A stretch of 64,000 nt of DNA from an uncultured bacterium (GCA_905233945.1 CAJOFY010000005.1:14698-78697); one strand, 5' to 3'. Counted from the stretch's first letter, positions 18,879 through 48,023 are shown. Notes: a model not told the origin generated them from the sequence alone. A program made the numbers and translations.

Positions 18879-21224
18879 TTATTCGTCAGAGTTCAGCATC
18901 AAAATGCGTTTGCCGCGGCCGCATTCATCAGGAGCGGTCTGGTTCTGCGAGAAAGCCGTAGGATCTATTTCGCCGATTTGGTCAAAGAAATCAACGACCG
19001 CATCACGCAGCGAAACCGATGTGTCAAGGCGTGTCGTATTGGCTTCGAGCATGTAGAATCCGCTGCCGCCGCGACCCATGTAATCGTTTGTCGCCATCTT
19101 GAAAAGCATGTTGGGAAGAAGAACTTTGTAGTCTTTGATGACATCGGTGTCACCGATTTTGAGGCACTTCGTCAAAGCGAAGGAGCTGGATTCTCCGAGT
19201 TCTTCCAAGAGCTTCTGGCTCGGATTGCAGTTGAGTTCGACACTCATCCCGGCAACCTGAACCTGTGTTTTGCAGCCGCGTGACGCTGATTTTCTCGCAA
19301 CAAAGTCAAAAAGGGTCTTCAGTTCGTTTCCGCTCAGATACATTGTGGTGATCGAGTTTTCGAACGGGAAGACTTCATAAAGTTTTTCAAGGGATATCTC
19401 ACCTGTCGGAATGTCTGCCCTGATACCCATCGAGTTCGTTACGCAGAACTGAGCTCTTACAAGTTCGTGGTTCATCATGGCAGTCGTTACGATATTTCCG
19501 AGCGGACTGTCGCCGTTGGCCGGGTCGTTTCTGACAATCGTCGAAATTGCATATCCGACTTTTTTCTGGATATACTGCGAGTAGTCAAGTCCCTGTACAT
19601 AAGGTCTCAGCATATTTATGAAATCGCCGTTTTCGGCAACTTTTTCAGTAATCGGGATCGTCCGGTATTTGTGCCATACAATGTGCCTGTTCTGCACGGC
19701 AATCTCAAGTTCGCCTATGACTTTGAGGTTTACGCCGCTGTGGATCACGATGACATCTCTTCCGTCAGGTCCTTTGAGAACTTTCGGCGGATCAAGGACA
19801 ACGTGATGGTGACCGCCGAGAATGAGGTCTACGCCTTTGACGTTTTCCGCGATTCTGTAGTCGCCGTCAAGTCCCTGGTGAGAAAGGACAACGACTATAT
19901 CGACAAGCGGACGCAGACTGTTGACGTAACTCTGCGTCGTTTCAATCGGGTCGAGGAAGTTGAATCCGACGCTGCCGCCTACCTGGTAGCCCGAGTTGAT
20001 CGAGCTGTCGTTTGCGACTCCGACAATACCGATGGTCAGACCGCCCGCCATCGCAATCAGATACGGCGAGGAAATATCCATCAGTCCTTTGTGACCGTCA
20101 TAGTCAAAAAGATAGTTCGAGGCAAGAAGCGGGAATCCGCCCGACTTTCTGTAAGCCGAGACAAGTCCTCCGGTGCCGTTGTCGAACTCGTGGTTTCCGA
20201 TAACCATCGCATCGACTCCGAGTTTCTGCATCGAAAGCATCTCAACGTCGCCTTTGTAGAGGTTGAATTCGGGAGCGCCCTGGAAAGTGTCGCCGCTGTC
20301 AAGGTAGAGCACCGGAACGCCGTCACGCTCGTGTTTGGCCCTGATTTCGTCAATAATGGTTTTTGCTCTTGCGATTCCGCCTGTATTGATTAGGCCGGGG
20401 CGGTAGTCGGAGTAGTCGCATTTTCCGTCGCGGTTGATGTCTTCGCTGTTCGCTTCAGCTTCGGTCATTGCCTTATTGTATGCGCTGTCACTGTCGTAAT
20501 TCTTGCGCAAAATCAGTTTTCCGTCTTTACCGCGCCAGGTTTGTCTCAGCGAATCGTAAGGATAATCGCAATTCCCGTTGTGGTTGCGGTCAAAAACAAG
20601 GGCGCAGTCGTAGGTGTCGCACAAGCCGTCGAAGTTCAGGTCCTCGTGTTTGTCACAGCTGCCGTTGCCGTTTTTGTCCCAGCAGGTGAGGTAAGTGCCC
20701 GACTCAAAACAGTCGCCGGAACTGCATCCGTAGTGCTCGTCAATATCCTCGTCAGGGTCACAGATGTTGTTTTTGTTCTTGTCCCAGCATCTCTGGCAGT
20801 CAAGAATATCGCATCTGCCGTCCTCGTTGATGTCTTCGATTACAAGCCCTTTTGCTATCGAATCTGCGGCGTAGTAGCCTTTTTCTTTGAGCTCGTCCTT
20901 TGTGTAGTAGACATATTTTCCGCTTTCATAGACCTGATATTTTCCGGTGGCTTCATTGTATGCACCGTTGCAGTATGAGCCGGCGCCGCTGTAGTCAAGA
21001 TCCCAGCACGGCGGATTTTTCGACTGAAGCCCCATGTTTCTGTCGAACATATTCGGTTCCATCCAGAACGGAAGATACTTTCCGTGGGTATCGGTCGTGT
21101 GGATGAAAACCATTTTCCGCGGGATTCCATCGTCAACCGGGGTTCCGCCGTTGCTGCTGTCAAAGCATGATGTCAGAAGAAAGCATGAAAAAAAAAAGGA
21201 AGCAAAAATTCTGAAAGATTTCAT
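18879..21224 (-). CDS. Bifunctional metallophosphatase/5'-nucleotidase lipoprotein with Cys/Asp-rich Ca-binding-like insertion
   Basis: Lipobox LLTSC; IHTTDTHG and GNHEFD metallophosphatase motifs; C-terminal 5'-nucleotidase substrate-binding domain; ~230-aa insert with repeated DxDxDGxCD motifs. Confidence 0.75.
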   Translation of the reverse strand: MKSFRIFASFFFSCFLLTSCFDSSNGGTPVDDGIPRKMVFIHTTDTHGKYLPFWMEPNMFDRNMGLQSKNPPCWDLDYSGAGSYCNGAYNEATGKYQVYESGKYVYYTKDELKEKGYYAADSIAKGLVIEDINEDGRCDILDCQRCWDKNKNNICDPDEDIDEHYGCSSGDCFESGTYLTCWDKNGNGSCDKHEDLNFDGLCDTYDCALVFDRNHNGNCDYPYDSLRQTWRGKDGKLILRKNYDSDSAYNKAMTEAEANSEDINRDGKCDYSDYRPGLINTGGIARAKTIIDEIRAKHERDGVPVLYLDSGDTFQGAPEFNLYKGDVEMLSMQKLGVDAMVIGNHEFDNGTGGLVSAYRKSGGFPLLASNYLFDYDGHKGLMDISSPYLIAMAGGLTIGIVGVANDSSINSGYQVGGSVGFNFLDPIETTQSYVNSLRPLVDIVVVLSHQGLDGDYRIAENVKGVDLILGGHHHVVLDPPKVLKGPDGRDVIVIHSGVNLKVIGELEIAVQNRHIVWHKYRTIPITEKVAENGDFINMLRPYVQGLDYSQYIQKKVGYAISTIVRNDPANGDSPLGNIVTTAMMNHELVRAQFCVTNSMGIRADIPTGEISLEKLYEVFPFENSITTMYLSGNELKTLFDFVARKSASRGCKTQVQVAGMSVELNCNPSQKLLEELGESSSFALTKCLKIGDTDVIKDYKVLLPNMLFKMATNDYMGRGGSGFYMLEANTTRLDTSVSLRDAVVDFFDQIGEIDPTAFSQNQTAPDECGRGKRILMLNSDE

Positions 21225-36145: not shown

Positions 36146-38091
36146 AACACTCCATCCAGAAAGAGATAATCGTAGTACTTGCGCTGGAGCTGATCGCGGT
36201 CATTGCCGCATGCGCACTCGTCACCTACCGCAATTTCTATTCGTCGGCACTCAAAACTTCCCGCGACGATTCCAGAAACGCGGCAAAGGCTGCCGGAACA
36301 ATAATCTCGGAATACGGACTTGATGCCGTGACTGATCCGGAGAACAAAGAACTTTACGGCAAAATACGCCGCAGACTGAGAGCGATATGCAAAGCTTTCG
36401 AACTTGATTATCTTTACATCTACACGATCGAAGGAAACGACGAGTGTCACTACATCATGGCCGTTGCCTCAAAAGACGAAAATGACCGCATCGCGGCGGA
36501 ACGGCTGGGGCTCGGCACGATAAGAGACTGTCATCCGCTCCATGCTCAGGAACAGGCTGCGATAAAGGGGGAAATAAGCGACGAACTCTTGATCCTCAGA
36601 AACGAATTCGGCGGGGATATGACCTGGATAGTCCCGTTTTTCGATAATAACGGCAAAGCCAGGGCTTTGATCGGCGCTGATGATGCTCTATATCTGTACA
36701 ATGCAGGGATCACCAGACATTTCTTTGTGGCACTGATCCCGATCTCGCTGCTCATCTTTATCGCCCACATGGTGCTTTTCTTTATAATCCACCGCAGGAT
36801 AGTGACCCCCGTGAAAACAATCGCAAACCGTATGCGGACTTTCGATCCGTCGCATGAGGAAGAACCTTTGCAGGTAAATTCGCAGGACGAGATGAGATCC
36901 ATTGCCGAAGCTTTTGAAAAAATGTCGCACGACATTCACCTCTACATCGAAAACATAGCTTCAATCACCTCGGAGCGCGAGCAGTCCAGAGCACAGCTTG
37001 ATGTTGCAAGGAAAATACAGTACGGCATGGTTCCAGCTTCCTTCAGTGAAAACAGAAACGGTGTCGATGTTTCCGCACTGATGCAGCCGGCAAAAGAGGT
37101 CGGCGGTGATTTTTACGACGCTTTTACCCTCGAAAACGGCAACTACTGCGCTCTGATCGGCGATGTTTCAGGCAAAGGAGTCGGCGGCGCACTGTTCATG
37201 GCACTTACGAAGTCGATACTTCGCGACAGAATGAAACAGATCATGGATCCAGCGGCAGTTCTCAACAAAGTCAACGACGATCTCTGCGCCCAGAATCCGG
37301 AAGGGATGTTCGCAACTGTCTTCGTGCTTGTGATCGATCCGAAAACGGGAGTCGTCACCTATGCCAACGCCGGTCACAATGCGCCCCTGCTGATATCGGG
37401 CGGCGAAGTCTCGTTTCTGAATCCAGAACCCGGGATCGCGCTCGGTCTTTTTGAAGACGCAGGCATCAGAAACGGAAATCTGACTTTGAAAAAAGGCGAA
37501 GGATTCCTGCTTTATACCGACGGAGTGACCGAAGCCGTGAACACGGAAAAAGCTTTCTACGGCGCGGAAAGACTTCTTTCTCTTTTGAAGAATAACACTC
37601 CGAAAGAGAGTTCTGCTGCTGTAAACGCTGTCAAAAACTCGGTTGAGGAGTTTTTCACCGGCTGCGATCAGTTCGACGACATAACCGTTCTTTCGCTTTT
37701 CTTCCGCAGCGGAGAAACGGTCTGTGAACTCAAGCCTGCACTCGAAGATTTCAGGATCGTGAAACAGACTGTAACGGAGAAATGTCCCGGCAGTCCCAAC
37801 GCTAAAAAAGCACTTCTTGCGTGCGAAGAAGCATTCGTGAATATAGTCAGCTATTCCGGCGCATCATACATTAAATTCTCGTGTTCAGCAGGCGGCGGCA
37901 TTCTCACCGTCACCCTGAAGGATAACGGCATTCGCTTCGACCCCTTTGCCGGCGAAAGTTCCGCAGAAAAGGATTTCGAATCTTTCGACAAAGGCGGCAT
38001 GGGTATCAGCCTGATAAAGCAGATAGCCGAAAAAACCGAGTGGAGATTCGAAAACGGAAACAATGTTCTGACATTGACTTTCAAGATATAA
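36142..38091 (+). CDS. Membrane sensor protein with fused PP2C/SpoIIE-type phosphatase and C-terminal HATPase_c (RsbW/SpoIIAB-like kinase) domain
   Basis: Two TM segments bracketing ~170-aa extracytoplasmic domain; PP2C motifs GGDFYD, IGDVSGKGVGGAL, YTDGVTEA; C-terminal GGMGISLIKQIAEKTEW ATP-lid; ATGA overlap with STAS gene. Confidence 0.65.
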   Translation: MKHSIQKEIIVVLALELIAVIAACALVTYRNFYSSALKTSRDDSRNAAKAAGTIISEYGLDAVTDPENKELYGKIRRRLRAICKAFELDYLYIYTIEGNDECHYIMAVASKDENDRIAAERLGLGTIRDCHPLHAQEQAAIKGEISDELLILRNEFGGDMTWIVPFFDNNGKARALIGADDALYLYNAGITRHFFVALIPISLLIFIAHMVLFFIIHRRIVTPVKTIANRMRTFDPSHEEEPLQVNSQDEMRSIAEAFEKMSHDIHLYIENIASITSEREQSRAQLDVARKIQYGMVPASFSENRNGVDVSALMQPAKEVGGDFYDAFTLENGNYCALIGDVSGKGVGGALFMALTKSILRDRMKQIMDPAAVLNKVNDDLCAQNPEGMFATVFVLVIDPKTGVVTYANAGHNAPLLISGGEVSFLNPEPGIALGLFEDAGIRNGNLTLKKGEGFLLYTDGVTEAVNTEKAFYGAERLLSLLKNNTPKESSAAVNAVKNSVEEFFTGCDQFDDITVLSLFFRSGETVCELKPALEDFRIVKQTVTEKCPGSPNAKKALLACEEAFVNIVSYSGASYIKFSCSAGGGILTVTLKDNGIRFDPFAGESSAEKDFESFDKGGMGISLIKQIAEKTEWRFENGNNVLTLTFKI

Positions 38092-38292
38092 GATAAGACC
38101 TCATCCCTGACCCTTCTCCAGTGTGGCGAAGGGAACCTTATCTTGGCTCCCACTTCTCGCCTCTCACTCAGGGAGAGGTGGCAGCCGAAGGCTGACGGAG
38201 AGGGCTTCCGTCATGTTGAGCAAAGCGAAACATCTCTGACCTTGAACGGAAACGGGAATTATTTTGGTGAGTTATCTTGCGGCGGTGTTGGC

Positions 38293-38318
38293 AATTGTGC
38301 AGAACATTCTGCACAATT
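38293..38318. repeat. Perfect 12-2-12 palindrome AATTGTGCAGAA-CA-TTCTGCACAATT
   Basis: Direct reading of sequence. Confidence 0.9.
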
Positions 38319-38374
38319 TAGTTACCTCGGAAATAATCGAACGAACTTCTTCAAATGATTTCTGAATCAAGATT

Positions 38375-38425
38375 TTCATTTATATTTCCTCGCAGCATTT
38401 ATGGTGGTCATTGTGGTTGGCTCCG
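38375..38425 (-). repeat. Conserved ~50-bp gene-leader repeat, copy 1 (minus strand ...CAATGACCACCATAAATGCTGCGAGGAAATATAAATG)
   Basis: Near-identical to copies at 39463 and 40555; contains SD GGAGGA/GAGGA and ATG of a minus-strand ORF (here only 32 codons). Confidence 0.8.
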
Positions 38426-38426
38426 T

Positions 38427-38729
38427 CTATTTTTTACATTCATTCGCTATTTCTGCCGCTATATTATTCAGCATAACACAATCATTGCGGCTGATATGCC
38501 GTTTGCTGGCATCATATTCCCATGGACTGAGGATAAGCAGCTCTCCTGCAGCACAAGCATCGAAGAGGTTATCCTGCGGTTTGTAATATTCACGAAAACC
38601 ATTGTCCGCCAAATATATGAACGGCAGTTTTTCTTTCAGCAGAACTTCCATCACCTGCCGCTCCTGCGGTGAAATGAACGGAGAGACCATAACGGTACCG
38701 TTGCGGGCGGTAACAACACATCCGTTCAT
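38427..38729 (-). CDS. Hypothetical protein / possible gene fragment downstream of RAYT
   Basis: No SD; in the same frame as upstream RAYT gene separated by one TAA and 10 codons. Confidence 0.3.
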   Translation of the reverse strand: MNGCVVTARNGTVMVSPFISPQERQVMEVLLKEKLPFIYLADNGFREYYKPQDNLFDACAAGELLILSPWEYDASKRHISRNDCVMLNNIAAEIANECKK

Positions 38730-38759
38730 GTAGTCACGAAGCTGTTGATTATCGCCACG

Positions 38760-39467
38760 TTAAGCAGCCTCGACCATTGTACGGCAGACATGCACTGGAG
38801 CAAAATGCCCAGCTTGCAGCAGTGACACATTGCCGACTCCGGAATAAGTTCTGCCGGCTATCTCTATGCCGGTTTGCACGCGGAAAAAGCCGGGACGCAG
38901 CCGTTTTGTGGCGAGACGCTGAGGATTCATCCTGATATAGCGGAACATTGTTTGCAGCTGTCCGCGGCGTGACAGCGGGCGGACAAAAGGCATTGCTGTG
39001 AAAACGGGATCCACATCTAACTTTTGTTTATCCCGAATACCATTCGGGTTATTTTCATTGTCATCATCATTTTGTCCATTACCTCGAATATTATTCGTGT
39101 GAATCGACAAACTATACTGTCGCCCGATTTTCTTTGCCCCTTGCCAGAAACCGCGCACAGCTGTCATAATGCCTTTTGGCATGGGCTGTGTAACATAGAG
39201 TATTGTGTGTAGATGATCCGGCATAAGGCAATATTGCAAAGTACGGATTTCAGGATGAAAATCGGAAATTTTGAACATAATACTGATTATTTGTTTTCCT
39301 AACTCTGTAGATTCCACTCTTGCTTGTGCAGGGTCATTTTCTGGAATAACAAGTGAGCCTAAGAGTGGCTCGCGGCTCGGAATCACCATCGTAACATGGT
39401 AAATACCGATTCCTTTCCATGCCGTGCCGGGCTTTTGCCAGTGCCATCTGTCAGGCTCATTTTCCAT
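38760..39467 (-). CDS. REP-associated tyrosine transposase-like (IS200-like Y1 HUH transposase, RAYT)
   Basis: IYHVT, PDHLHTIL (HuH) and RYIRMNPQR (catalytic Tyr) motifs; preceded by conserved leader repeat. Confidence 0.6.
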   Translation of the reverse strand: MENEPDRWHWQKPGTAWKGIGIYHVTMVIPSREPLLGSLVIPENDPAQARVESTELGKQIISIMFKISDFHPEIRTLQYCLMPDHLHTILYVTQPMPKGIMTAVRGFWQGAKKIGRQYSLSIHTNNIRGNGQNDDDNENNPNGIRDKQKLDVDPVFTAMPFVRPLSRRGQLQTMFRYIRMNPQRLATKRLRPGFFRVQTGIEIAGRTYSGVGNVSLLQAGHFAPVHVCRTMVEAA

Positions 39468-39512
39468 TTATATTTCCTCCAAGCATTTATGGTGGTCATT
39501 GGTTTTGCTCCG
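39463..39512 (-). repeat. Conserved gene-leader repeat, copy 2
   Basis: TTCCATTTATATTTCCTCCAAGCATTTATGGTGGTCATTGGTTTTGCTCCG. Confidence 0.8.
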
Positions 39513-39527
39513 TTTTCATCTCGTAAT

Positions 39528-40559
39528 TTAAATTTTTTCTTCCAATATTCCGCTAACCAATTTGCGCAGTTCCTCACGGTTTGGCAAATACAGTTCATAT
39601 TTTGAGACAAACAGATTGCTGTCCATTCCATAAGTTGTATACTCAACAAGCAGTTCATCTTTGTTGTGACTCAGAATAATTCCTATAGGCGGATTGTCGT
39701 TCGGTTCGTTTTCTTCCTTTGCAAAATAGCCCATATACATGTTCATTTGCCCGATATCTTCGTGTTTTACTGAATTTTTCTTTAAATCAATCAGCACAAA
39801 GCACTTCAAAATCCGGTGATAAAAAACCAAATCCACATGATAATGAACATTGTTTATTGTAATCGGATACTGCCGTCCGATGAACGCGAACCCTTTACCG
39901 AGTTCAAGCAGAAAGGTTTGAAGATTGTCAATAATCCGCTGTTCCAGATCACTTTCGGAATAACGCTCCATTTCAGGAAGTCCAAGAAATTCAAGCGTGT
40001 ATGTGTCTTTTACGACATCCATTGGTTTTTGAATTTCAATGCCTGTTTTTGCCAGTTCAAGAATTCCTTCCTTGTCTTTGCTTGCCGCAAGTCTCAAAAA
40101 CAGACCGGAATCCATCTGGCGGCGGAGGGAACGGACATCCCAGTTTTCTTTCACACATTCTTTTTCGTAAAAACTACGTTCAAGATCATCGTCTATTGTT
40201 ATTAACTCGCAGATATGGCTCCATGTTAATTTGTCAGAAGTCTGACAAAGTGGATATAGCAGGTAAAACTTCCGCATATTATTGAGATTTGGGCGGCTGT
40301 AACCTCTTCCCAAACGCATTGTCAGAATTTTAGCAAGATTTGTCAGCATTGAAGTTCCGTATTTAGCCTTTTTTCCACCGTCCTGCTCGAACTCGACAAT
40401 GTGATGTCCAACAGACCAATAAGTCTTGACCATGACGGCACTTATATTAAGTGCAAGACACGATTTTGTGAGATTCACTTCGTCAACAATAGTATTGGCA
40501 AGAACATTCAGTCTTTCATTTGTTTGAATTTCATCGTTTTTTACAAGTTCTTTATTCAT
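39528..40559 (-). CDS. YhcG-family PD-(D/E)xK nuclease (DUF1016)
   Basis: N-terminal GRGYSRPNLNNMRKFYLLYP (DUF1016_N-like) and C-terminal D...LIDLK PD-(D/E)xK motif. Confidence 0.65.
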   Translation of the reverse strand: MNKELVKNDEIQTNERLNVLANTIVDEVNLTKSCLALNISAVMVKTYWSVGHHIVEFEQDGGKKAKYGTSMLTNLAKILTMRLGRGYSRPNLNNMRKFYLLYPLCQTSDKLTWSHICELITIDDDLERSFYEKECVKENWDVRSLRRQMDSGLFLRLAASKDKEGILELAKTGIEIQKPMDVVKDTYTLEFLGLPEMERYSESDLEQRIIDNLQTFLLELGKGFAFIGRQYPITINNVHYHVDLVFYHRILKCFVLIDLKKNSVKHEDIGQMNMYMGYFAKEENEPNDNPPIGIILSHNKDELLVEYTTYGMDSNLFVSKYELYLPNREELRKLVSGILEEKI

Positions 40560-40606
40560 TTATATTTCCTCCAAGCATTCATGGTGGTCATTGGGGTTTG
40601 CTTACT
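40555..40606 (-). repeat. Conserved gene-leader repeat, copy 3
   Basis: TTCATTTATATTTCCTCCAAGCATTCATGGTGGTCATTGGGGTTTGC. Confidence 0.8.
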
Positions 40607-42041
40607 CTCTTTCTTTTACCAGTGAATAAGTTCTGTTCTTGTTCGCACCGTTGGCAACAATTTTTCCCTCTTCAACAAGTTCGGAAAGATAATCCTTTGT
40701 TCTCGATAGTTTAAGCCCGATATACAGCGAAATATCCTGTGTTTTGGCCTCGGTGTTATCTTTTAGATATTCCAGAATCTTATCTTTAAATTTTATCGCC
40801 GATTTATCGCCGATTTTAGTATTTATCACCGATTTATCGCCGACTTCAGTATTTATCGCCGATTTATCGCCGATTTTGGTGTAAGAGGGACGATAAAAAT
40901 TCACCCGCAGCATATCGCCGATTTCTAAGAACTCAGGTCTTTTGACGCCGTATTCATCACATTGAGAAAAAATGCGCTTAAATCCGGTTCCCCAGCCTTC
41001 AACAACATCTATTTTTTCTAAAGTGCGTGCAAGCGTCCTGTTTCTGACAGAAGAGCGGCCTGACAAGGCTTCTTCCAGTGTCAAAGAACCATATATGCTG
41101 CCGGGAGAAGAAATCTCGACTCTGTCGTCATAAACTGCGACCTGAACACTGGAACTCATCTGGTAGTTGCGGTGGATCACAGCATTTATGATAAGCTCGC
41201 GGATGGCTTTAGGCGGAAGTTCGTATCTTTCTTTGCGGACAATACCGTCTATTTCCACAGCCATGCTGAGATAGTTCAAAACGAATTTATATGCGCCGTC
41301 TATCTGCTCGCAAAGCGGTCCTTCATATTCCTTTTTATCAAGAAAATCGACGCGTTCCGTCCCTCTGAATCTTGCACACTGAATGCGTGAAGTATAGTCA
41401 TGTTTTCCCAGAAGAATAGCGTAAGCATTTGTCGCGATATCCTGCTTGATGCTGGTGAAAAGATTCAAGTTTTTCAATTCGTTCTTTGTGATTTTTCTCT
41501 CGGCGCGTTCCGAAAAATCCTTGCAGAGATATTTGATATCAGAAGCTTCAACTTTCAGTGAAGTAAACGGCAGTTCGTCATAATAAACATGGCGGCCACG
41601 GTTTGAAAGTTCATCCAAAGCCGTCCAGTCAGCATTGCGAGTCGTCGCTCCGCGCCTGATATAAGTTCCGTTTTCCTTACCCTGCGATTTCACATAATAC
41701 GGCGTGGCGTTTCCCGGAAAAACAGTTACAACAAGAAGCTGTGCGTTTTCGATGTTTTCAGCCGTTATGTCGAACATGATCTGCGGCTCGCATGTGTGGG
41801 CGATAGTGTCGGCAATACTGTCTTTCAGCTCGAACAGATCAATACTTTTCGGAATTCCGACAAATTCCCGCTTGTCATTCACGCCGATCACGAACTTGCC
41901 GCCAGCTCCGTTCGCAAAAGCGACAATTGTTTTCACCCATTTCCGCGCATCCTGCGGAAGTTCCTGCTTAAATTCAAGAGTTCGGCTCTCGCCGGATTTT
42001 ATTTCATCGAGTAAGGTCATTGTGTTTTGCTCCATTTTCAA
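40602..42041 (-). CDS. Schlafen-like AlbA_2 (divergent AAA) + HATPase_c_4 ATP-binding protein with C-terminal wHTH, paralog 1
   Basis: N-terminal ESRTLEFKQELP...IVAFANGAGGKFVIGV AlbA_2 signature; central ELIINAVIHRNY histidine-kinase-like ATPase; 3x10-aa tandem peptide repeat before wHTH. Confidence 0.65.
   Translation of the reverse strand: MKMEQNTMTLLDEIKSGESRTLEFKQELPQDARKWVKTIVAFANGAGGKFVIGVNDKREFVGIPKSIDLFELKDSIADTIAHTCEPQIMFDITAENIENAQLLVVTVFPGNATPYYVKSQGKENGTYIRRGATTRNADWTALDELSNRGRHVYYDELPFTSLKVEASDIKYLCKDFSERAERKITKNELKNLNLFTSIKQDIATNAYAILLGKHDYTSRIQCARFRGTERVDFLDKKEYEGPLCEQIDGAYKFVLNYLSMAVEIDGIVRKERYELPPKAIRELIINAVIHRNYQMSSSVQVAVYDDRVEISSPGSIYGSLTLEEALSGRSSVRNRTLARTLEKIDVVEGWGTGFKRIFSQCDEYGVKRPEFLEIGDMLRVNFYRPSYTKIGDKSAINTEVGDKSVINTKIGDKSAIKFKDKILEYLKDNTEAKTQDISLYIGLKLSRTKDYLSELVEEGKIVANGANKNRTYSLVKERE
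40793..40882 (-). repeat. 3 x 30-bp in-frame tandem repeat (KIGDKSAINT units) inside paralog 1
   Basis: TTTATCGCCGATTTATCGCCGATTTTAGTA x3 with minor variation. Confidence 0.85.
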
Positions 42042-42202
42042 ACAATCTCAGCAAAATTTACTGTATTTCCCCAAAAAATCAAATTGAATTTTGCGGTATT
42101 TCGACTTGATTTTAGAGAATCATTCTCAAACGAAGGATTTGTGAAAATATAAATGAAATCTTTGTCTTTGCTGTCCATTTTCAACCCGCACTTAAAACAT
42201 TT

Positions 42203-45200
42203 TTACTTCTTGAACTCCAAATATTCCGCGTATTTTTGCGCCATAAGATTTTTGATGTAACTTTCCATATACGCATAATCGGGCTTACCTGCGGAATCTA
42301 CAGGAAGAATAAGCTGATAAGAAGACAACCTGCTTTGTGTTATAGAATGAGCATGACCGAATCTGTCTGCTTGTTGAGAAATAATTTTACTTAAAAAAAT
42401 AAGTTGAAATTTATTCAACACCTGTTTGTGATATAAAATCGTAACATGAGAATCAACTGCCATAAAAGCGGGTTGATAATAAGCAAGTCCAGCTCCTCCA
42501 TCTCCATCATTATTTAAAGATATGCAGTTTCCTTCAAAATGTTTCTTGGAGTTTTGTGAAACAAACGCTTTTAAGCCATTATTTATTTTTTTGGCAGAGA
42601 TTAAAGGAATTTTACCTTCCTCAAGGACATTCATATTATTTTGATTTCCTTTTTTAAACATAAACAAGTTTGTTATTGGAAACGCCTTCCATTCCTTATC
42701 CTCAAGTTTTTCTATTTTGGGATTTACTTTTCCTTGGGTAGTCTTGAGGCATTCACTCAGCCGTTTTGTGGCAAAGCCCCGATATTCTTTAATTTTATGA
42801 TCTTCAAGTTCTTTTATATATGATTCCATGAAATTGTAGTCTATTTCACCTTTTGAATTTACAGGGAGGATGATATTCTGTGCTCTCATACGGTTTTCAT
42901 TGAATTTATACGCATATAAAAATTTAGATTTTTGTTGCAGGATATTTGTTTTCATAAATAACAAGGAAAATTTATTATCTTTCCAGTTTCTTAGATGAAA
43001 TCTTTTCACGTCATCTGAAAAAATGCATTCATAAGGATGATAGAAGTTCTCAACAACACTGCCGTTATAATTTACGCCAAGAACATTTTTATCAAGGGAC
43101 TTATTTTCATTTGACACGAAATTGGTGATCCCATTGTTTGAATCAGAGGCTCCGATAAAAGGTCTTTCTCCTTGTTTCATCTCTGATGCCACAAGGCGTT
43201 TTCCCGCTTTTATCTCAAAAATATCAGTAAGTTTCGATTCTTTCCAATCTCGACTTGTCAGTTCTTTTTTAAAGTTTTTTTTTACGTTTTCCGAATTATT
43301 ATCGTCTTCAAAAAGATATTTTCTACCTTGCATGATCATTGAAAACTCAAAAGTAAGGTAATCTCCGACAGTCTTTTCAAAATCCTTGTCGGTAGGAATC
43401 TCGTCATTGAAATAATAAAAACTGTGCAGCCATTCATCTTCCGCTGTGATTGCCGTTTTTACGCAGAACTTCGTCGGAGCTTCAATGCGGTTAAACCACA
43501 CATCAAGCAAATGCTGCCTTTTGTCTTTTGCGCTCTCTGTCTCCAAAAGCCCGATATGCGGAGACACCTTAAAGCCGTCATCCTCAAAATTCACGAATTT
43601 GCATATCTTCTCTTTGTCATGCGGTACCCCAGCTGTAAAAACAGCAATGCACGGAATTACGCCGATTCCATAAAAGGTATCTTTCTGAAGCATAATCGTT
43701 CCTTCGAGCGTGTGCTTTTTCAAAATCGAATTTTTTATCTGCTGTTCTTCCTTTGATTTTCCGGTCATTGAACTTTGAGGAACTATCACGGCACATCTTG
43801 AATTTGGAAGAAGTGAATCCAAAAGATGTTCCGTAAAAGCAATTTCATAAAGACTCGGATCTTTTTTTGTTCCCTGAGAATAAGGCGGATTCAACATTCC
43901 GACTGTTGCTCTGAAGTCTGTCTGAAGCTGTTTCGGATTTTTAGCAAGAAAATCATCACAGTGCAAATTGCTTTTGCCGTCGCCTCGAAGAATCATGTTT
44001 GTTGTCGCTACAGTGAACATATCCGGACGAAGCTCTATTCCGAACAATTGATTTTTACGGATATGCTGTTGTTCACTTTCTTTTGTACTTTGCGAAAGCA
44101 TTTTATGAAGCGCAGCGACAAGAAAACCGCCTGTTCCGCAGCACGGGTCAAAAATTCTGTCGGTAGTTTTCAAATCAAGCAAATCGCAGAAAAGTTCCGT
44201 AATATGGCGTGGAGTAAGAACTATTCCTAAAGTTTGACCACTACCACCGGAATAGCGCATAAACTCGCCGTAAAAACGACCAAGATAATCCTCAGCCGAT
44301 TTTGTATATTTGATTGACTTATAAAGTTTTTCGTCCAGAAACTTTGCAAAGAATTTCAGCGGAGTTTCGCCAAGAGTCGCATTTTTTTCGTTTAACTTTG
44401 TACTGTCTTTTATGATTGCGAACTGCGAAAGAATTTTATCGATTTTTGTTATCGGCGATAAATCCGTTCTTTTGAAACTTGATTCAATCGCATTGTAAAT
44501 TTTCTGTCCGTCGGTTACGAAAGAGTCTCCGTTTAGTGAATCTATGCTGAAATTTCCATGGTCACGCTCACGCAAAGCAAGAAGAATTCCCGAAACAACA
44601 AGCGGTTTTTCTTCATCTTTCATATTACCGTAGTTTCTCAAATGCTCGTGCAATACTTTTGCATCCGCCAAGATCTCTTCCAGTTCTTTTTCTTTGTCGC
44701 TCGATTCCTTCAAGACATCGCAAAGATAATACTCGTCGATATTTTTTTCATTAAACGAAATAAAAGATTCAACATCTTCAAGCTGGTCAAACAGATTTTG
44801 CCTGTCATCAACAAAAAGCGGAGTAATCCGATGATTTTTTTCATTTCCGGAAACTCCTAAAGCAAAAACTTTTTTATAAGTCGTATTCTGAATCAAATGT
44901 TTCGCATAGAACAACGCGCCGTTCACGGCAAACTCAACAACATCTTTAGTCTCAAGGCTGATAAGTTTATTTGAATCGTATTTCACATGATTTTCGAGTT
45001 TCGGCTTATCTTCAATTACAATAATAAAATCTTTTACAACGCCCACATATTCAGGAAAACCGACTTTGCCAGTGCCGCGTTTTGACGCTGTTTTTAAAGC
45101 CTCATCAATTTCTTTTATTTCGCTTCCCTGTGCATCTAATTCTATTCCGGCTTCTTTCAGTAAATCGTGAACCCACAAATCGGTTTTAACTTCTTTTTTT

Positions 45201-45205
45201 GCCAT
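42203..45205 (-). CDS. Single-chain restriction-modification protein: N-terminal putative PD-ExK nuclease + HsdM-like N6-adenine methyltransferase + two HsdS-type target-recognition domains (Type IIB/IIG-like)
   Basis: MTase motifs LGIVLTPRHITELFCDLL, FDPCCGTGGFL, MLNPPYS; two TRDs each followed by conserved helix (DYNFMESYIKEL / DYAYMESYIKNL); N-terminal FPEYVGVVKDFIIVIEDK possible nuclease motif. Confidence 0.7.
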   Translation of the reverse strand: MAKKEVKTDLWVHDLLKEAGIELDAQGSEIKEIDEALKTASKRGTGKVGFPEYVGVVKDFIIVIEDKPKLENHVKYDSNKLISLETKDVVEFAVNGALFYAKHLIQNTTYKKVFALGVSGNEKNHRITPLFVDDRQNLFDQLEDVESFISFNEKNIDEYYLCDVLKESSDKEKELEEILADAKVLHEHLRNYGNMKDEEKPLVVSGILLALRERDHGNFSIDSLNGDSFVTDGQKIYNAIESSFKRTDLSPITKIDKILSQFAIIKDSTKLNEKNATLGETPLKFFAKFLDEKLYKSIKYTKSAEDYLGRFYGEFMRYSGGSGQTLGIVLTPRHITELFCDLLDLKTTDRIFDPCCGTGGFLVAALHKMLSQSTKESEQQHIRKNQLFGIELRPDMFTVATTNMILRGDGKSNLHCDDFLAKNPKQLQTDFRATVGMLNPPYSQGTKKDPSLYEIAFTEHLLDSLLPNSRCAVIVPQSSMTGKSKEEQQIKNSILKKHTLEGTIMLQKDTFYGIGVIPCIAVFTAGVPHDKEKICKFVNFEDDGFKVSPHIGLLETESAKDKRQHLLDVWFNRIEAPTKFCVKTAITAEDEWLHSFYYFNDEIPTDKDFEKTVGDYLTFEFSMIMQGRKYLFEDDNNSENVKKNFKKELTSRDWKESKLTDIFEIKAGKRLVASEMKQGERPFIGASDSNNGITNFVSNENKSLDKNVLGVNYNGSVVENFYHPYECIFSDDVKRFHLRNWKDNKFSLLFMKTNILQQKSKFLYAYKFNENRMRAQNIILPVNSKGEIDYNFMESYIKELEDHKIKEYRGFATKRLSECLKTTQGKVNPKIEKLEDKEWKAFPITNLFMFKKGNQNNMNVLEEGKIPLISAKKINNGLKAFVSQNSKKHFEGNCISLNNDGDGGAGLAYYQPAFMAVDSHVTILYHKQVLNKFQLIFLSKIISQQADRFGHAHSITQSRLSSYQLILPVDSAGKPDYAYMESYIKNLMAQKYAEYLEFKK

Positions 45206-45304
45206 GCTAAACTCTCCTTGACAACCAAAACCTGCTGGTTGCTATGTACTATAAAAAATCCCCTTTCTTATTTCAATAGCGTAAATATCTAATTTTATTG
45301 AATG

Positions 45305-45360
45305 ATTTTGAAATTTGGATGTTAGACAATCTTGACTCGGAGAATGAGAAAATGCGTTGT
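45305..45360. repeat. Intergenic repeat R1 copy A (TTGAAATTTGGATGTTAGACAATCTTGACTCGGAGAATGAGAAAATGCG)
   Basis: ~85% identical to 46940-47000. Confidence 0.7.
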
Positions 45361-45411
45361 TAATGTACTGATATTTTTAACGACAAATAATAAATCGTAA
45401 AAACATAAGCT

Positions 45412-46866
45412 TCAGATCTTTTTGTTTAGAATATATGTTCTATTGCGGTTTGCACCTTTTGCTATAATTTTACCGGATTCAACAAGGTCATATAGATAGA
45501 ATTTTGTCTGCGTAGCCTTCAAACCGAGCATTTCGCTGAGTTCTTTCAAAGCGCACTCTTCGTGGTTTTCCAAATATTCGAGGATAAGTGATTTAGCGTT
45601 CCTTTTTGTCGTCGGTTTATCGTCGGTTTCTGGTTTTGTCGTCGGTTTATCGTCGGTTTTTGGTTTTGTCGTCGGTTTATCGTCGGTTTTTCGGTAAATA
45701 TTCGTGCGGATTGCAATTTCCATATCAATAAATTCAGGCTCGGCAAGACCGGAATCTTTAAGCGAATCTATAATTCGCGGAATTCCTGTTCCCCATTGCT
45801 CTATCAAGCGCATATAATGAAAAGCATTGGCTATAGCCTCGTTGCGGACTTTGGAAAACCCCTGTTTCATACGTTCAATTGTTATTCCTTTAGGCAGTCC
45901 GCCGGGAGAAGTGATTTCAAGCCGGTCATCAAAAATCGCAATCTGAATATGGGATACTTCAAGATAACTGCGGTGAAGAACAGCATTTATGATCAATTCG
46001 CGAATCGCTGTCGGAGGAATTTCATAGACATCCTGCCTGAAAAGCCCTTTTATTTCAGCACCAAGATGGATGTTGCGCAGAACAAAACTGTAAGCATCTT
46101 CAATCTGCTGCTGAATCGGACCAGTAAACTCCCGTCGGTCAACAAACACACTTCTGTCGGTTCCTTTAAAAACCGCACACTGTATTTTCGCGCACCACAA
46201 CGAATTTTTTGAAAGCAGATCAAAAGCATTCGTCCTGCAAAGCCTGCCGTTGTTTTCATATAAAAGTTGCCACGAAAGCAGATTGTTCTTTGTCAGCGGT
46301 TTAATATTCCGCCTCTGTTCGTCAGTTTTGCAGTTTTTAATTGCTGTCGCTTTCAAAGAATTGCAAAAAGATCGAAGTTCTTTTTCCAAAACAAACTTTT
46401 CACGCTGAACCGTTCTATCAAAACCCGTGTTTGAACCTTCAAACATCAGAGCTCTAATGGTGTCTCTGTCAGCAAGCCGCGTAGTTGCGGAAAGACGCAC
46501 GAAACAACCGTTTTCAAGCCCCAAAGACTTTATGTAGTAAGGCGTGTGCTCACCCGGATAAATTTGTGCGACAATAACCGTTTTATTCTGTAAAGTCTGC
46601 AAAGAAACATCACACATAATCTGCGGCATACAGTTGTCGTAAATCATATTGGAAACAGAATCGGCCGTTTTAAAAAGATTATCACTCTCTATCCCGACAA
46701 CATCATGCGTCTCATCATCTATTCCGAAAATAATCCGCCCTCCGTGCCCGTTTGCAAAAGCGACAACTGTTTTCAAAAATTTTATATGGTCATCCGGAAT
46801 CTGCCGCTTGTATTCCAGAGTGTTTGATTCAGGTTCTATTTTTGAAAAAATTTGATTTTTGATCAT
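45412..46866 (-). CDS. Schlafen-like AlbA_2 + HATPase_c_4 ATP-binding protein with C-terminal wHTH, paralog 2
   Basis: Same architecture as 40602..42041 (~35% identity); 3x10-aa tandem repeat TDDKPTTKP(K/E). Confidence 0.65.
   Translation of the reverse strand: MIKNQIFSKIEPESNTLEYKRQIPDDHIKFLKTVVAFANGHGGRIIFGIDDETHDVVGIESDNLFKTADSVSNMIYDNCMPQIMCDVSLQTLQNKTVIVAQIYPGEHTPYYIKSLGLENGCFVRLSATTRLADRDTIRALMFEGSNTGFDRTVQREKFVLEKELRSFCNSLKATAIKNCKTDEQRRNIKPLTKNNLLSWQLLYENNGRLCRTNAFDLLSKNSLWCAKIQCAVFKGTDRSVFVDRREFTGPIQQQIEDAYSFVLRNIHLGAEIKGLFRQDVYEIPPTAIRELIINAVLHRSYLEVSHIQIAIFDDRLEITSPGGLPKGITIERMKQGFSKVRNEAIANAFHYMRLIEQWGTGIPRIIDSLKDSGLAEPEFIDMEIAIRTNIYRKTDDKPTTKPKTDDKPTTKPETDDKPTTKRNAKSLILEYLENHEECALKELSEMLGLKATQTKFYLYDLVESGKIIAKGANRNRTYILNKKI
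45605..45692 (-). repeat. 3 x 30-bp in-frame tandem repeat (TDDKPTTKPx units) inside paralog 2
   Basis: GGTTTTGTCGTCGGTTTATCGTCGGTTTTT x3. Confidence 0.85.
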
Positions 46867-46879
46867 ATTTAGCTCCTCA

Positions 46880-47000
46880 AAAAAACAAAAACTCGAATAT
46901 TATAATAAATATTTTTGAAAATTGAAGAAAAATTTATCAATTTTGAAATTTAAATGTTAGACAATGTTGAGTCGGAAAATAATGAAATGCGATCTGCGAT
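46880..47000. repeat. Intergenic repeats R2 copy A (46880-46945) and R1 copy B (46940-47000)
   Basis: R2 copy A ~95% identical to 47797-47860; both precede minus-strand gene starts and contain TTCAAT-N16-TATAAT promoter-like elements on minus strand. Confidence 0.7.
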
Positions 47001-47083
47001 TGCGGAAAAACTTATTTTATTGAGCGGATTTTTATGAATTAATTTTGGTTGTGTTTAACTGTGTTTATATTTGCAGGAAAAAA

Positions 47084-47371
47084 TCAGTTGTTCTGCGGAA
47101 GGAATTCGATCTTGAGTTTCATTCCCATTCCGGTGGCAAGACGTTGCAGTGTTCTGAGTGAGGGATTGGCGTTGCCTTTTTCTATTCTGCTGATGTCGCC
47201 TTGTGCGATACCGGTGCGTTCGGAAAGTTCCTTCTGGGTGAGTCCCGATTGCTTGCGGGCATCGATAATCGCCTGAATTACGGCGTGTTCCGGCTGAAGA
47301 AGCTCGTATTCCGCCTTAAAATCGGGGTTTTTTAGCTGTTCTTTGAGGAAATCGTTAAATTTTTCGCCCAT
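47084..47371 (-). CDS. higA: HigA-family antitoxin (XRE HTH)
   Basis: LTQKELSERTGIAQGDISRIEKG helix-turn-helix; downstream of toxin gene with overlap. Confidence 0.75.
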   Translation of the reverse strand: MGEKFNDFLKEQLKNPDFKAEYELLQPEHAVIQAIIDARKQSGLTQKELSERTGIAQGDISRIEKGNANPSLRTLQRLATGMGMKLKIEFLPQNN

Positions 47372-47726
47372 TTTTATCTCCGTTTCTACGCAAATAATCA
47401 GCTCTGTATTTTTTCGCTCGTTCTATTTCGGCGGCCGGAGTTTTCTGCGTTTTTTTGATAAAACCGTGAGTCAGAACAATCCGCCGGTCAACATAAAAGA
47501 AATAGAAAACTCGCATTGCATTTGTTTCAGCCTGGGCTCTCAGCTCAAAAATCCCGTCCGACAAATATTTGGAATACGGCTCTCTCAAATCGTATCCGTT
47601 ATCCTGCAATATCGAGATCATGTCCGCCATTTTTGCCCTCATTTTGACACCCAGAGAAAGAAGAAAATCTTTTGCCGGCTTGTCACCATTCTCTTTCTCA
47701 TAAAATTCAACTTCAAAATTTGTCAC
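47355..47726 (-). CDS. higB: HigB/Gp49-like RelE/ParE-superfamily toxin
   Basis: Gp49/DUF891-like sequence (FELRAQ...RVFYFF...RIVLTHGFIKKTQKTP); toxin-first arrangement. Confidence 0.65.
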   Translation of the reverse strand: MTNFEVEFYEKENGDKPAKDFLLSLGVKMRAKMADMISILQDNGYDLREPYSKYLSDGIFELRAQAETNAMRVFYFFYVDRRIVLTHGFIKKTQKTPAAEIERAKKYRADYLRRNGDKNGRKI

Positions 47727-47796
47727 TGAACCACTACAAAAAATATTTTATGTGATTTATCCTATTTTGTCAATCTCGATTTTCACATCTTATAAA

Positions 47797-47860
47797 AAAA
47801 CAAAAACTCAAATATTGTAATAAATATTTTTGAAAATTGAAGAAAAATTTATCGATAATT
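47797..47860. repeat. Intergenic repeat R2 copy B upstream of higB
   Basis: AAAAACAAAAACTCAAATATTGTAATAAATATTTTTGAAAATTGAAGAAAAATTTATCGAT. Confidence 0.7.
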
Positions 47861-47932
47861 TATCAACAGCAAACATAATATTCATTGAATGATTCGCAAA
47901 CCGATTTTTACAAATCAGCTGAAAACAAACGA

Positions 47933-47960
47933 TTGAAAACATTTGATTTTGTGATATAAA
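47933..47960 (+). promoter_or_regulatory. Sigma70-like promoter TTGAAA-N16-TATAAA upstream of NRPS gene
   Basis: Hexamers ~65 nt upstream of ATG 48024; RBS AGAGGAG. Confidence 0.45.
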
Positions 47961-48023
47961 CAGCGGTTTTTTAAGGAGTTGCATATAGCAGCACCTGTTG
48001 ATGTATGAAGAGAGGAGTATCAG

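Follow-up and report, generated by a model that had tools for sequence, protein, structure and literature searches.

BcgI of Bacillus coagulans is the archetypal Type IIB restriction-modification (R-M) enzyme, and it is grouped with BaeI and Bve1B23I as "RM + S, Type I-like". Its alpha subunit (BcgIA, or BcgI.RM) has a length of 637 aa (PMC11997821, Table S2) and presents, in this order, a PD...ExK nuclease, a helical connector, a gamma-class N6-methyladenine (m6A) methyltransferase (MTase) and a helical tail, with no ATPase, while the beta subunit (BcgIB, or S) carries two target-recognition domains (TRDs). BcgI acts as A2B and Type I MTases as M2S, and in these complexes the two C-terminal tails of M bundle with the conserved regions CR1 and CR2 of S. 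The present work concerns an open reading frame (ORF) at positions 42203-45205, on the minus strand, of a 64,000-nucleotide stretch of DNA from an uncultured bacterium (GCA_905233945.1 CAJOFY010000005.1:14698-78697), the whole of which is called the window hereafter. This ORF appears to unite both BcgI-like subunits in one polypeptide and carries, at the point of fusion, a conserved run of nine adenines (A9), and we tentatively propose that slippage at the RNA level on this run lets the single ORF supply two proteins, one with and one without the S module.

Single-chain Type IIB enzymes have been described before. AloI, PpiI, TstI, CjeI, CjePI and HsoII share the order R-M-TRD1-CR1-TRD2-CR2, have 1251-1303 aa and display an extra "knob" domain in predicted structures (PMC11997821). 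The stoichiometry of the AloI/CjeI-type enzymes, which are one RM module short per site, has been called "a mystery" (PMC3874165), and TstI forms a homotetramer that bridges two sites, with sluggish second cuts (PMC4027205). HaeIV, with 953 aa, has a single TRD and recognizes the symmetric site GAYN5RTC. Among Type IIB enzymes, a structure has been solved for BsaXI alone (cryo-EM entries 8w0p, 8w2p and 8w2q), which combines an RM chain of 916 aa, including knob and paddle, with a separate S subunit of 476 aa.

Other described systems involve homopolymeric runs. In Thermus thermophilus, transcriptional slippage on the A9 run of dnaX gives about 50% of a truncated product that ends at a nearby stop, and in Escherichia coli dnaX the same outcome is reached through -1 frameshifting on A AAA AAG (PMC1088944). 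Helicobacter pylori harbours BcgI-like RM + S loci, HP1471/HP1472 and JHP1364/JHP1365 (Hpy99XXII), in which a stop follows RM and the S gene has no start codon; these loci were reported inactive and contain a homopolymer in S (PMC3936762). They differ from the gene described here in being split and in that their homopolymer is poly-G and lies inside S, although, as a speculation by analogy, they may reflect the same expression logic from the split side.

A conserved A9 run at the RM-S junction

The ORF runs from ATG to stop over exactly 1000 codons plus the stop codon. The features that frame its junction are:

42203-45205, minus strand: whole ORF, a predicted single-chain R-M-S Type IIB enzyme of the BcgI lineage, 1000 aa (ORF check, Pfam, PADLOC)
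43250-43306, minus strand: RM-S linker, residues 634-652 (19 residues), variable in sequence and length among orthologues with the exception of its slippery core
43271-43284, minus strand: invariant 14-mer TAAAAAAAAACTTT, as read on the sense strand, codons V640-K-K-N-F645 (codon alignment of orthologues)

The A9 run occupies nucleotides 1923-1931 of the gene (43275-43283 of the window, T9 on the plus strand), within codons V640-K-K-N, exactly where split systems have the RM stop and the S start. A preliminary description of this DNA, made from the sequence alone, did not include the homopolymer among its observations. A variant with ten adenines would end as ...VKKKL*, with 645 aa and a stop after two codons, and one with eight as ...VKKTLKKN*, with 648 aa and a stop after five codons. 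Both shift products are BcgIA-sized and RM-only, and both keep the C-terminal tail helix. Nearby stops in the alternative frames also occur in two related loci, L100 and L181.

Conservation was evaluated in a codon alignment of 14 genome-derived fused two-TRD orthologues of about 3 kb, with RM identities of 78-99%. The motif (G/A)TA AAA AAA AAC TTT is present in 14/14 of them, despite a flanking linker that differs in sequence and length. Across the alignment, the codon itself is invariant at 32 of the 421 columns in which a degenerate amino acid is invariant (7.6%). The 14 nt of the invariant 14-mer constitute the longest invariant nucleotide run, no other of 11 nt or more being found in this alignment, and the segment that holds it is the least conserved, with 23% of invariant nucleotide columns vs 50% in the RM part. 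As for codon usage, AAA accounts for 80% of Lys codons and TTT reaches 77%, while AAC is the minor Asn codon (22%), and GTA and ATA represent 31% of Val and 29% of Ile codons, respectively. In each of the 14 aligned genes, the junction run is the sole A/T run of 9 or more.

The same picture is obtained with a broader set of sequences. An A9 or A10 run is present in all of the approximately 26 two-TRD fusions whose DNA was read, and the corresponding KKNF signature is found in the linker of 111/112 two-TRD proteins. The exception, P0068, reads GTA AAA AAA AAG TTT GA, and thus still has A9, now with an A_AAA_AAG heptamer and a TGA two codons on in the -1 frame. A distant two-TRD fusion (P0131, locus L100), with 45% identity in the N-terminal region and an unrelated linker, has an in-frame A10 at this boundary too; no other run in its gene reaches 8, and shifts on the A10 would give a product of 638 or 641 aa. 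Conversely, KKNF is absent from the 16 genuine one-TRD fusions and from the 97 split alpha subunits. Reading of the DNA showed the junction to be free of A/T runs of 8 or more in the one-TRD loci, in 67/68 split viral loci and in two split plasmid loci; the exceptions among split loci are one viral locus with A9 about 90 nt downstream and the genome locus L055, with an intergenic A8. The conserved junction run sets the gene apart from its BcgI-type split relatives.

A pattern scan of metagenomes that allowed A8 to A11 returned nine contigs, too few for allele frequencies of A8 and A10, and eight of them have A9. The ninth, L092 (an ERZ842401 contig; 161-2131 and 2289-3206), has A10: its RM ORF stops right after the run and its S frame is intact, with the first possible start about 160 nt downstream. 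Either phase variation to the OFF state or an error of assembly would account for this allele. As judged by these comparisons of nucleotide sequences, the A9 run is under purifying selection at the nucleotide level, lies at a domain boundary and is confined to the architecture with one RM module and two TRDs (1RM:2TRD).

Long A/T runs are scarce in the window, where two of 9 or more were observed vs 7.9 expected under a first-order Markov model. The other one is a T10 at 21188-21197, on the coding (minus) strand of an ORF at 18879-21224, where it encodes FFF within the signal peptide (MKSFRIFASFFFSCFLLTSC...) of a protein predicted to be a lipoprotein; slippage or phase variation might occur at this site too.

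Domain organisation and relation to BcgI

The remaining features of the gene are all on the minus strand and are given below in the direction of transcription.

45212-45276, minus strand: promoter-like TTGAAA-17-TATAGT (45276-45248; sigma-70-like) and AAGGAGAG, upstream of the ATG at 45205 (consensus matches only)
44786-45205, minus strand: putative nuclease domain, residues 1-140, alpha/beta, PD-(D/E)xK-type (AlphaFold2 topology, PADLOC, weak Pfam matches, a UniRef name)
45005-45055, minus strand: putative catalytic motif P51-E52 ... E65-D66-K67 (invariance in homologues, analogy with BcgI Glu53)
44306-44785, minus strand: helical connector, HsdM-N-like, residues 141-300 (all-helical in the model)
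43307-44305, minus strand: gamma-class N6-adenine MTase with C-terminal helical tail, residues 301-633 (Pfam, PDB, model, Foldseek, HMM)
44123-44152, minus strand: MTase motif I, FDPCCGTGGF
43880-43891, minus strand: MTase motif IV, NPPY
42866-43249, minus strand: TRD1, residues 653 to about 780 (Pfam Methylase_S; hypervariable among orthologues)
42701-42865, minus strand: CR1, residues about 781-835, with a long helix at 790-820 (conservation, model)
42302-42700, minus strand: TRD2, residues 836 to about 968 (Pfam, model, tblastn)
42206-42301, minus strand: CR2, residues 969-1000, with a helix at 977-999 (conservation, model)

The start of the ORF is credible because a Shine-Dalgarno sequence, AAGGAGAG, is placed 6 nt ahead of the ATG (about 45219-45212) and a promoter-like site lies upstream. 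The preliminary description had reported the 1000-aa ORF, without stating its strand, as a single-polypeptide nuclease-methyltransferase-2xTRD enzyme (Type IIB/IIG-like) with no HsdR, and the ORF check, Pfam, PADLOC and fold comparisons support that reading. The motifs it quoted are all found, namely GFPEYVGVVKDFIIVIEDK (residues 49-67), FDPCCGTGGFL (352-362) and NPPY (439-442). In Pfam, N6_Mtase is matched at residues 304-584 (E 2e-33) and Methylase_S twice over 652-1000 (E 3e-33), far beyond chance, in agreement with the proposed fusion of a gamma N6-adenine MTase core to two HsdS-type TRDs. The PADLOC profile REase_MTase_IIG PDLC03602 aligns from its position 2 to 634 (of 637) with residues 2-636 (E 2.5e-160), and Specificity_II PDLC03591 (341 positions) gives two matches in the C-terminus (E 3.8e-74). 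Matches of the ORF product to PDB sequences are all Type I HsdM and confined to residues ~294-542, and the NCBIfam search of the protein returned nothing specific. Neither Pfam nor NCBIfam revealed an ATP-dependent translocase or helicase domain in the protein, whose full length is covered by the R, H (connector), M and S modules.

The absence of separate hsdR and hsdS genes was also borne out within the window: tblastn with each protein module found no second hsdR, hsdM or hsdS copy elsewhere in the 64 kb at E<0.1, and no neighbouring gene is related to the enzyme. A shufflon was also considered and rejected, because neither silent hsdS cassettes nor inverted repeats of that kind were found in the window.

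The RM part has close stand-alone counterparts. A profile search returned alpha subunits of 633-645 aa that share 60-73% identity with it over 99-100% of residues 1-640, and such close stand-alone alphas have an adjacent S gene. In the split locus L008, the RM stop is followed, after 2 nt, by an S gene (354 aa, Methylase_S), and TRD1 of the window protein is 57% identical to TRD2 of that stand-alone S protein. A profile match to the RM chain of BsaXI begins at residue 173 (BsaXI 209) and extends from the connector through the MTase (E 3.6e-22). In the structural model of the RM part, a Rossmann MTase is followed by a terminal tail helix at 606-625.

The C-terminal 350 residues form a complete TRD1-CR1-TRD2-CR2 unit. 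TRD1 and TRD2 are only 33% identical, and an asymmetric bipartite target is therefore expected. The full-length AlphaFold model, built on 49 close homologues, was poor (mean pLDDT 54.9, with the RM part below 50), and of it only the reasonably confident S part was used; this part matches the HsdS structures 1ydx, 1yf2, EcoKI S and BsaXI S over 383-471 columns. Conservation amounts to 75-96% in the RM part and 25-40% in the TRDs, with CR1 and CR2 in between, which at the sequence level is the classic R-M pattern.

Thus, with respect to BcgI, the protein resembles it in RM length and order, in the lack of an ATPase and in having a BcgIB-sized S module with two TRDs. Type IIB features are present at the level of sequence and fold, i.e., R and M on one chain, a two-TRD S module and no motor domain. 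It differs in that alpha and beta form one polypeptide, so that the gene encodes one RM per S (two TRDs) and not A2B; a single ORF crosses the junction, and the BcgI feature of two polypeptides assembled as A2B is missing at the gene level.

The preliminary description had compared the protein with AloI, PpiI and TstI. The single-chain architecture stands, with the same 1RM:2TRD stoichiometry puzzle found in AloI, PpiI, TstI, CjeI, CjePI and HsoII, but the closest relatives are rather of the two-subunit BcgI type. The difference of ~250 aa that it noted is numerically right (AloI has 1262 aa and TstI 1251 aa), and it arises because the protein equals BcgIA plus a BcgIB-sized S module and a linker, with no knob. 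By size and description, it departs from the AloI/TstI/CjeI group in having 1000 aa and an RM part colinear with the 633-645-aa alphas, with no insert. It is a compact version of the BcgI lineage, distinct from the knob-bearing AloI/CjeI group of 1250-1300 aa. HaeIV differs as well, since the window gene has two different TRDs. We consider it highly probable, from sequence and models, that the protein is a BcgIA-like alpha (~637 aa) joined through the linker to a BcgIB-like S (~341-354 aa), that is, a single-chain Type IIB enzyme with the domain layout listed above.

Gene forms and distribution of the family

Database searches returned more than 7000 relatives, the best matches sharing the ~1000-aa architecture, and a scan of one genome per species found relatives in 194 genomes. 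One close family occurs in three gene forms: split, RM+1TRD (812-830 aa) and RM+2TRD. The RM+1TRD relatives share the 1RM:1TRD logic of HaeIV, would act as dimers and are devoid of A9. The closest relatives of the window protein (88-91%) come from metagenome-assembled genomes of rumen Spirochaetales and Treponema, and the complete genome of Treponema ruminis RU1 has a fused copy with 73% identity. Hits in Firmicutes, Alphaproteobacteria and Bacteroidota are mostly split RM + S with abutting or overlapping genes, as read at their junctions. Among the relatives on IMG/VR viral contigs, 68 are split, two have one TRD and none is a two-TRD fusion; both full-length plasmid matches that were inspected are split, and these viral and plasmid loci serve here as negative controls. 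The two-TRD fusions are concentrated in a Treponema-like clade, plus one distant sequence.

Some one-TRD relatives (L012, L013 and L005-L007) have RM modules 90-92% identical to that of the window and are among the closest to it. In these proteins the linker is similar to the connector between CR1 and TRD2 in two-TRD fusions, and their sequences suggest recent internal deletions in which the A9 run, TRD1 and CR1 were lost at once. One family therefore moves freely among split, one-TRD and two-TRD gene architectures.

Proposed mechanism and competing explanations of the run

As extrapolated from BcgI, BsaXI and TstI, the two unlike TRDs would read an asymmetric bipartite sequence, and the methylase, using S-adenosylmethionine (SAM), would mark one adenine per half-site. 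On unmethylated DNA, the nuclease with Mg2+ would cleave the two strands on each side of the site, at a set distance from it, and would need neither ATP nor translocation. One chain would offer one RM module and two TRDs, and a second RM module would have to come from elsewhere. Slippage on A9 could supply it, by yielding an RM-only protein of 645-648 aa alongside the full-length RMS, and the two would assemble as (RM)(RMS), an R2M2S1 equivalent that rebuilds the (RM)2S stoichiometry of BcgI. The likeliest route would be transcriptional, as in Thermus dnaX, the alternative being -1 ribosomal frameshifting on A_AAA_AAC (or A_AAA_AAG); the former is favoured because only the run itself is conserved. 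The parallel with dnaX of T. thermophilus comprises a sense-strand A9 at a domain boundary, alternative-frame stops immediately 3' of it, and a full-length and a C-terminally truncated protein predicted to share one complex. The protein families are unrelated, and slippage in the present case is deduced from conservation.

Our preferred account is hence that two-TRD single-chain BcgI-type enzymes use RNA-level slippage at A9/A10 so that a fixed fraction of expression produces RM next to RMS from one ORF. From sequence comparison and analogy we hold it as the leading candidate, while conceding that the odds lie somewhat below even. We rank it above DNA-level phase variation, which in turn is placed above a scar without function. 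Several observations speak against it. The A9 two-TRD fusions are essentially one clade and one distant sequence, not many independent events, and the single metagenome contig with A10 would fit DNA-level phase variation or an assembly error equally well. Some AT-rich spirochaetes, e.g., Borrelia, appear to tolerate long A runs (PMC1088944). The TstI homotetramer is active when expressed from a synthetic codon-optimised gene (PMC4027205), and a single-chain Type IIB enzyme therefore does not strictly need an RM-only partner. Finally, no conserved frameshift stimulator, either a downstream hairpin or an upstream Shine-Dalgarno-like site, was found in the 14 orthologues, which makes stimulated -1 programmed ribosomal frameshifting less likely than transcriptional slippage.

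The run might instead be a contingency locus at the DNA level, in which replication slippage from A9 to A8 or A10 reversibly switches the system without any recoding of RNA. The ON state would be the RMS fusion, and in the OFF state RM would be made with S untranslated, so that restriction and modification would both be lost. A selected contingency tract would likewise display conservation at the nucleotide level, H. pylori has documented cases of Type IIG and BcgI-like systems switched by homopolymers (PMC3936762), and the A10 allele in one of nine metagenome contigs, with its intact S frame and no nearby start codon, is what an OFF variant would look like. That sole allele could also be an assembly or sequencing error, though, and the fused (ON) frame is kept by about 25 of the ~26 natural sequences that were read, the main clade being exactly A9, whereas classic contingency loci scatter widely in tract length and usually have longer tracts. 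Phase variation also leaves the placement at the domain boundary and the restriction to two-TRD genes unexplained, since a tract at any position of the gene would switch it. We regard it as a serious but rather unlikely explanation.

It is also conceivable, with a clearly smaller chance, that the A9 has no present function and is the scar of a frameshift or stop loss that fused RM and S across an A-rich intergenic region, retained through shared ancestry and codon bias in an enzyme that acts as a homo-oligomer. The TstI homotetramer needs no short form to function (PMC4027205), the junctions of split relatives, whose genes abut or overlap, are A-rich (L055 with its intergenic A8 among them), AAA (80%) and TTT (77%) are the preferred codons, and the fused clade is largely monophyletic. 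Shared ancestry and codon preference sit poorly with synonymous sites that are elsewhere near saturation, as the 7.6% of invariant codons indicates, while a stretch of five codons, with the minor AAC and a fixed xTA (Val/Ile) among them, is invariant in all 14 orthologues. The other contigs that were read keep A9 or A10 in an otherwise free linker (one with AAG for AAC, one with A10), the sole amino-acid exception retains A9, and the 45%-identical lineage retains A10 despite its different linker. In addition, long A/T runs are otherwise depleted in the window, as described above.

The putative N-terminal nuclease domain

A possible PD-ExK motif within the N-terminal ~130 aa had been suggested, together with structure prediction as a way of checking it. 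Residues 1-640 were modelled with AlphaFold on a more diverse alignment, which resulted in a pLDDT of 86.7 and a pTM of 0.80. Residues 1-140 form a separate alpha/beta domain, in which P51-E52 lie just before a strand at 53-57 and E65-D66-K67 end a strand at 60-67, followed by a long helix and two strands. In the model, this placement of E52 and E65-x-K67 relative to the strands is that of the PD-(D/E)xK topology. In Foldseek, the 640-residue model matches HsdM structures over about 460-535 columns, and the RM fusions BsaXI RM (8w0p, 8w2p), BpuSI (3s1s) and DrdV (7lo5) over 612-709 columns; the alignment with the BsaXI RM chain extends over 612-661 columns, at a sequence identity of 16-18%.

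The motif residues P51, E52, E65, D66 and K67 are invariant among 121 close homologues. At identities as low as about 30% (25-36 diverse relatives with 28-73% identity), K42, E65 and K67 are still invariant. In BcgI, Glu53 lies within the PD...EXK motif and the E53A substitution abolishes cleavage (PMC3592470); E52 of the P-E pair sits at almost the same residue number, a comparison by position and not by alignment. The PD-(D/E)xK residues D90, E105 and K107 of BsaXI are essential, and their place is colinear with that of E52, E65 and K67. Three PADLOC REase_MTase_IIG profiles begin at residues 2, 15 and 31. When the N-terminal domains of 25 family members were compared with Pfam, the matches were all sub-threshold, and the sensible ones all belong to PD-(D/E)xK families (HSDR_N_2, Hjc, VRR_NUC and PDDEXK_4). 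A 227-aa fragment 60% identical to the domain is named "Restriction enzyme BgcI subunit alpha" in UniRef, while the names of other relatives are mostly generic ("N-6 DNA methylase", "restriction endonuclease subunit S"). Topology, residue invariance and RM-fusion fold matches thus speak for the suggested motif.

Other results temper the assignment of the enzyme and of its nuclease. When a profile of the N-terminal 150 residues was compared with PDB sequences, only noise was obtained (E>0.07), and the isolated N-terminal domain had no significant profile match in Pfam. The case for a nuclease is built on the motif, the predicted topology, and the profile and fold matches to RM fusions. Likewise, the likeness to BcgIA is one of length, domain order, profile and relatives and not of an alignment to BcgIA itself, and the kind of enzyme is read from sequence and predicted fold. 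Our confidence that the nuclease is catalytically active is somewhat lower than that in the overall architecture.

These data bear on the proposal that the protein is an orphan M-S fusion methyltransferase, with a non-catalytic N-domain, that methylates a bipartite site without cutting. Such a protein would agree with the public annotation of relatives as "N-6 DNA methylase" or "restriction endonuclease subunit S", and with the lack of significant Pfam or PDB sequence matches of the N-terminal domain. We judge it very improbable, given the P-E...E-D-K residues invariant in the close family and the ExK core invariant to about 30% identity, a predicted topology that sets the motif residues as in PD-(D/E)xK nucleases, the end-to-end match to a REase-MTase profile, and the fold matches to BsaXI, BpuSI and DrdV that span the N-domain. 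The Glu53 motif of BcgI, at almost the same position, is catalytic (PMC3592470), and the gene lies in a low-GC island among defence-type genes. The model does not support the simpler case of an N-terminus that is solely an HsdM N-domain, because it contains a separate alpha/beta domain, the alignments with nuclease fusions are longer and the motif residues are invariant. That the gene is the M+S part of a Type I system, recruiting an HsdR motor encoded elsewhere in the genome, is scarcely credible: the sequence and fold of its MTase and S modules do resemble those of Type I systems, but the protein has its own nuclease domain, no separate HsdR with an SF2 motor is encoded in the 64-kb window or beside the relatives whose gene tables were inspected, and Type IIG/IIB profiles score 533 bits vs 132 bits for Type I M profiles.

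Genomic surroundings

The ORF region has 35-38% G+C, vs about 46% for the window. More broadly, the segment at about 38000-48000 has 35-44% G+C vs 45-51% on both sides; its genes, all of the defence or regulator type, are bounded by a SpoIIE/HAMP phosphatase gene on one side and a nonribosomal peptide synthetase (NRPS) on the other. It is probably a horizontally acquired defence island. The neighbouring features are:

40602-42041 and 45412-46866, minus strand: paralogous flanking genes of 479 and 484 aa, 40% identical (Schlafen/AlbA_2, HATPase_c_4 "RecG-like C-terminal", winged HTH)
39528-40559, minus strand: DUF1016_N + YhcG_C PD-(D/E)xK nuclease (PADLOC candidate defence family PDC-S02, E 1e-129)
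48024-55298 and 55302-57515, plus strand: two-module NRPS of 2424 aa (A-C-A-PCP, terminal reductase domain), which starts about 3 kb from the R-M gene and is unrelated to it

Each flanking Schlafen-like gene contains three tandem 30-nt repeats that encode TDDKPTTKP-like units (40791-40880 and 45604-45693), and both genes have weak PADLOC matches to Argonaute-associated and PDC-S50 models. A gene homologous to the DUF1016 gene is found directly upstream of a 90%-identical one-TRD relative (L005 4687-5718; L006 1-214), and the pairing therefore recurs in other contigs.

Repeated elements are abundant in this segment. A repeat of ~61 nt, with copies 72-84% identical at 38375-38435, 39463-39523 and 40555-40615, about 1090 nt apart, spans the ribosome-binding site and start region of consecutive minus-strand genes, and the R-M stop codon is closely followed by a partial inverted copy at 42132-42157. 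Candidate roles for the repeat are shared leader, cassette boundary and REP-like element. Adjoining it, a 235-aa ORF (38760-39467) with an HxH-type "PDHLHTIL" is reminiscent of RAYT/IS200-like transposases and has no Pfam match. A 52-nt element, 85% identical between its copies (45305-45356 and 46940-46991), precedes the R-M gene and the upstream Schlafen-like gene, and a 63-nt element, 95% identical (46879-46941 and 47794-47856), brackets the region of a small HTH_3 gene (47084-47371). Both pairs suggest that promoters or operators, on which the HTH_3 protein may act, were duplicated. Divergent HTH_3 genes are also located upstream of the fused relatives in L002-L004 and L181. A search of 37.5-48.1 kb with Rfam returned nothing.

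Concluding remarks

The enzyme itself is ordinary, i.e., another putative Type IIB R-M-S fusion of an already known kind, useful mainly as a candidate for a new specificity. The new point is the conserved slippery run at the point of fusion, which is fixed exactly where truncation would regenerate a BcgIA-like subunit, and only in the architecture that has a stoichiometry problem. The literature searched on slippage and frameshifting in R-M systems describes no junction tract for Type IIB enzymes, an absence that is no proof of novelty.

If RNA-level slippage on this run proves true, codon-optimising such genes would remove a functional element, a warning to both annotators and enzyme engineers. 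Programmed transcriptional slippage or frameshifting would further gain a new role, in a defence system, and one gene would have a simple means to set the ratio of its subunits. In essence, recoding of the dnaX kind would resolve the 1RM:2TRD stoichiometry puzzle of single-chain Type IIB enzymes, and it might also explain those BcgI-like loci whose S gene has no start codon.

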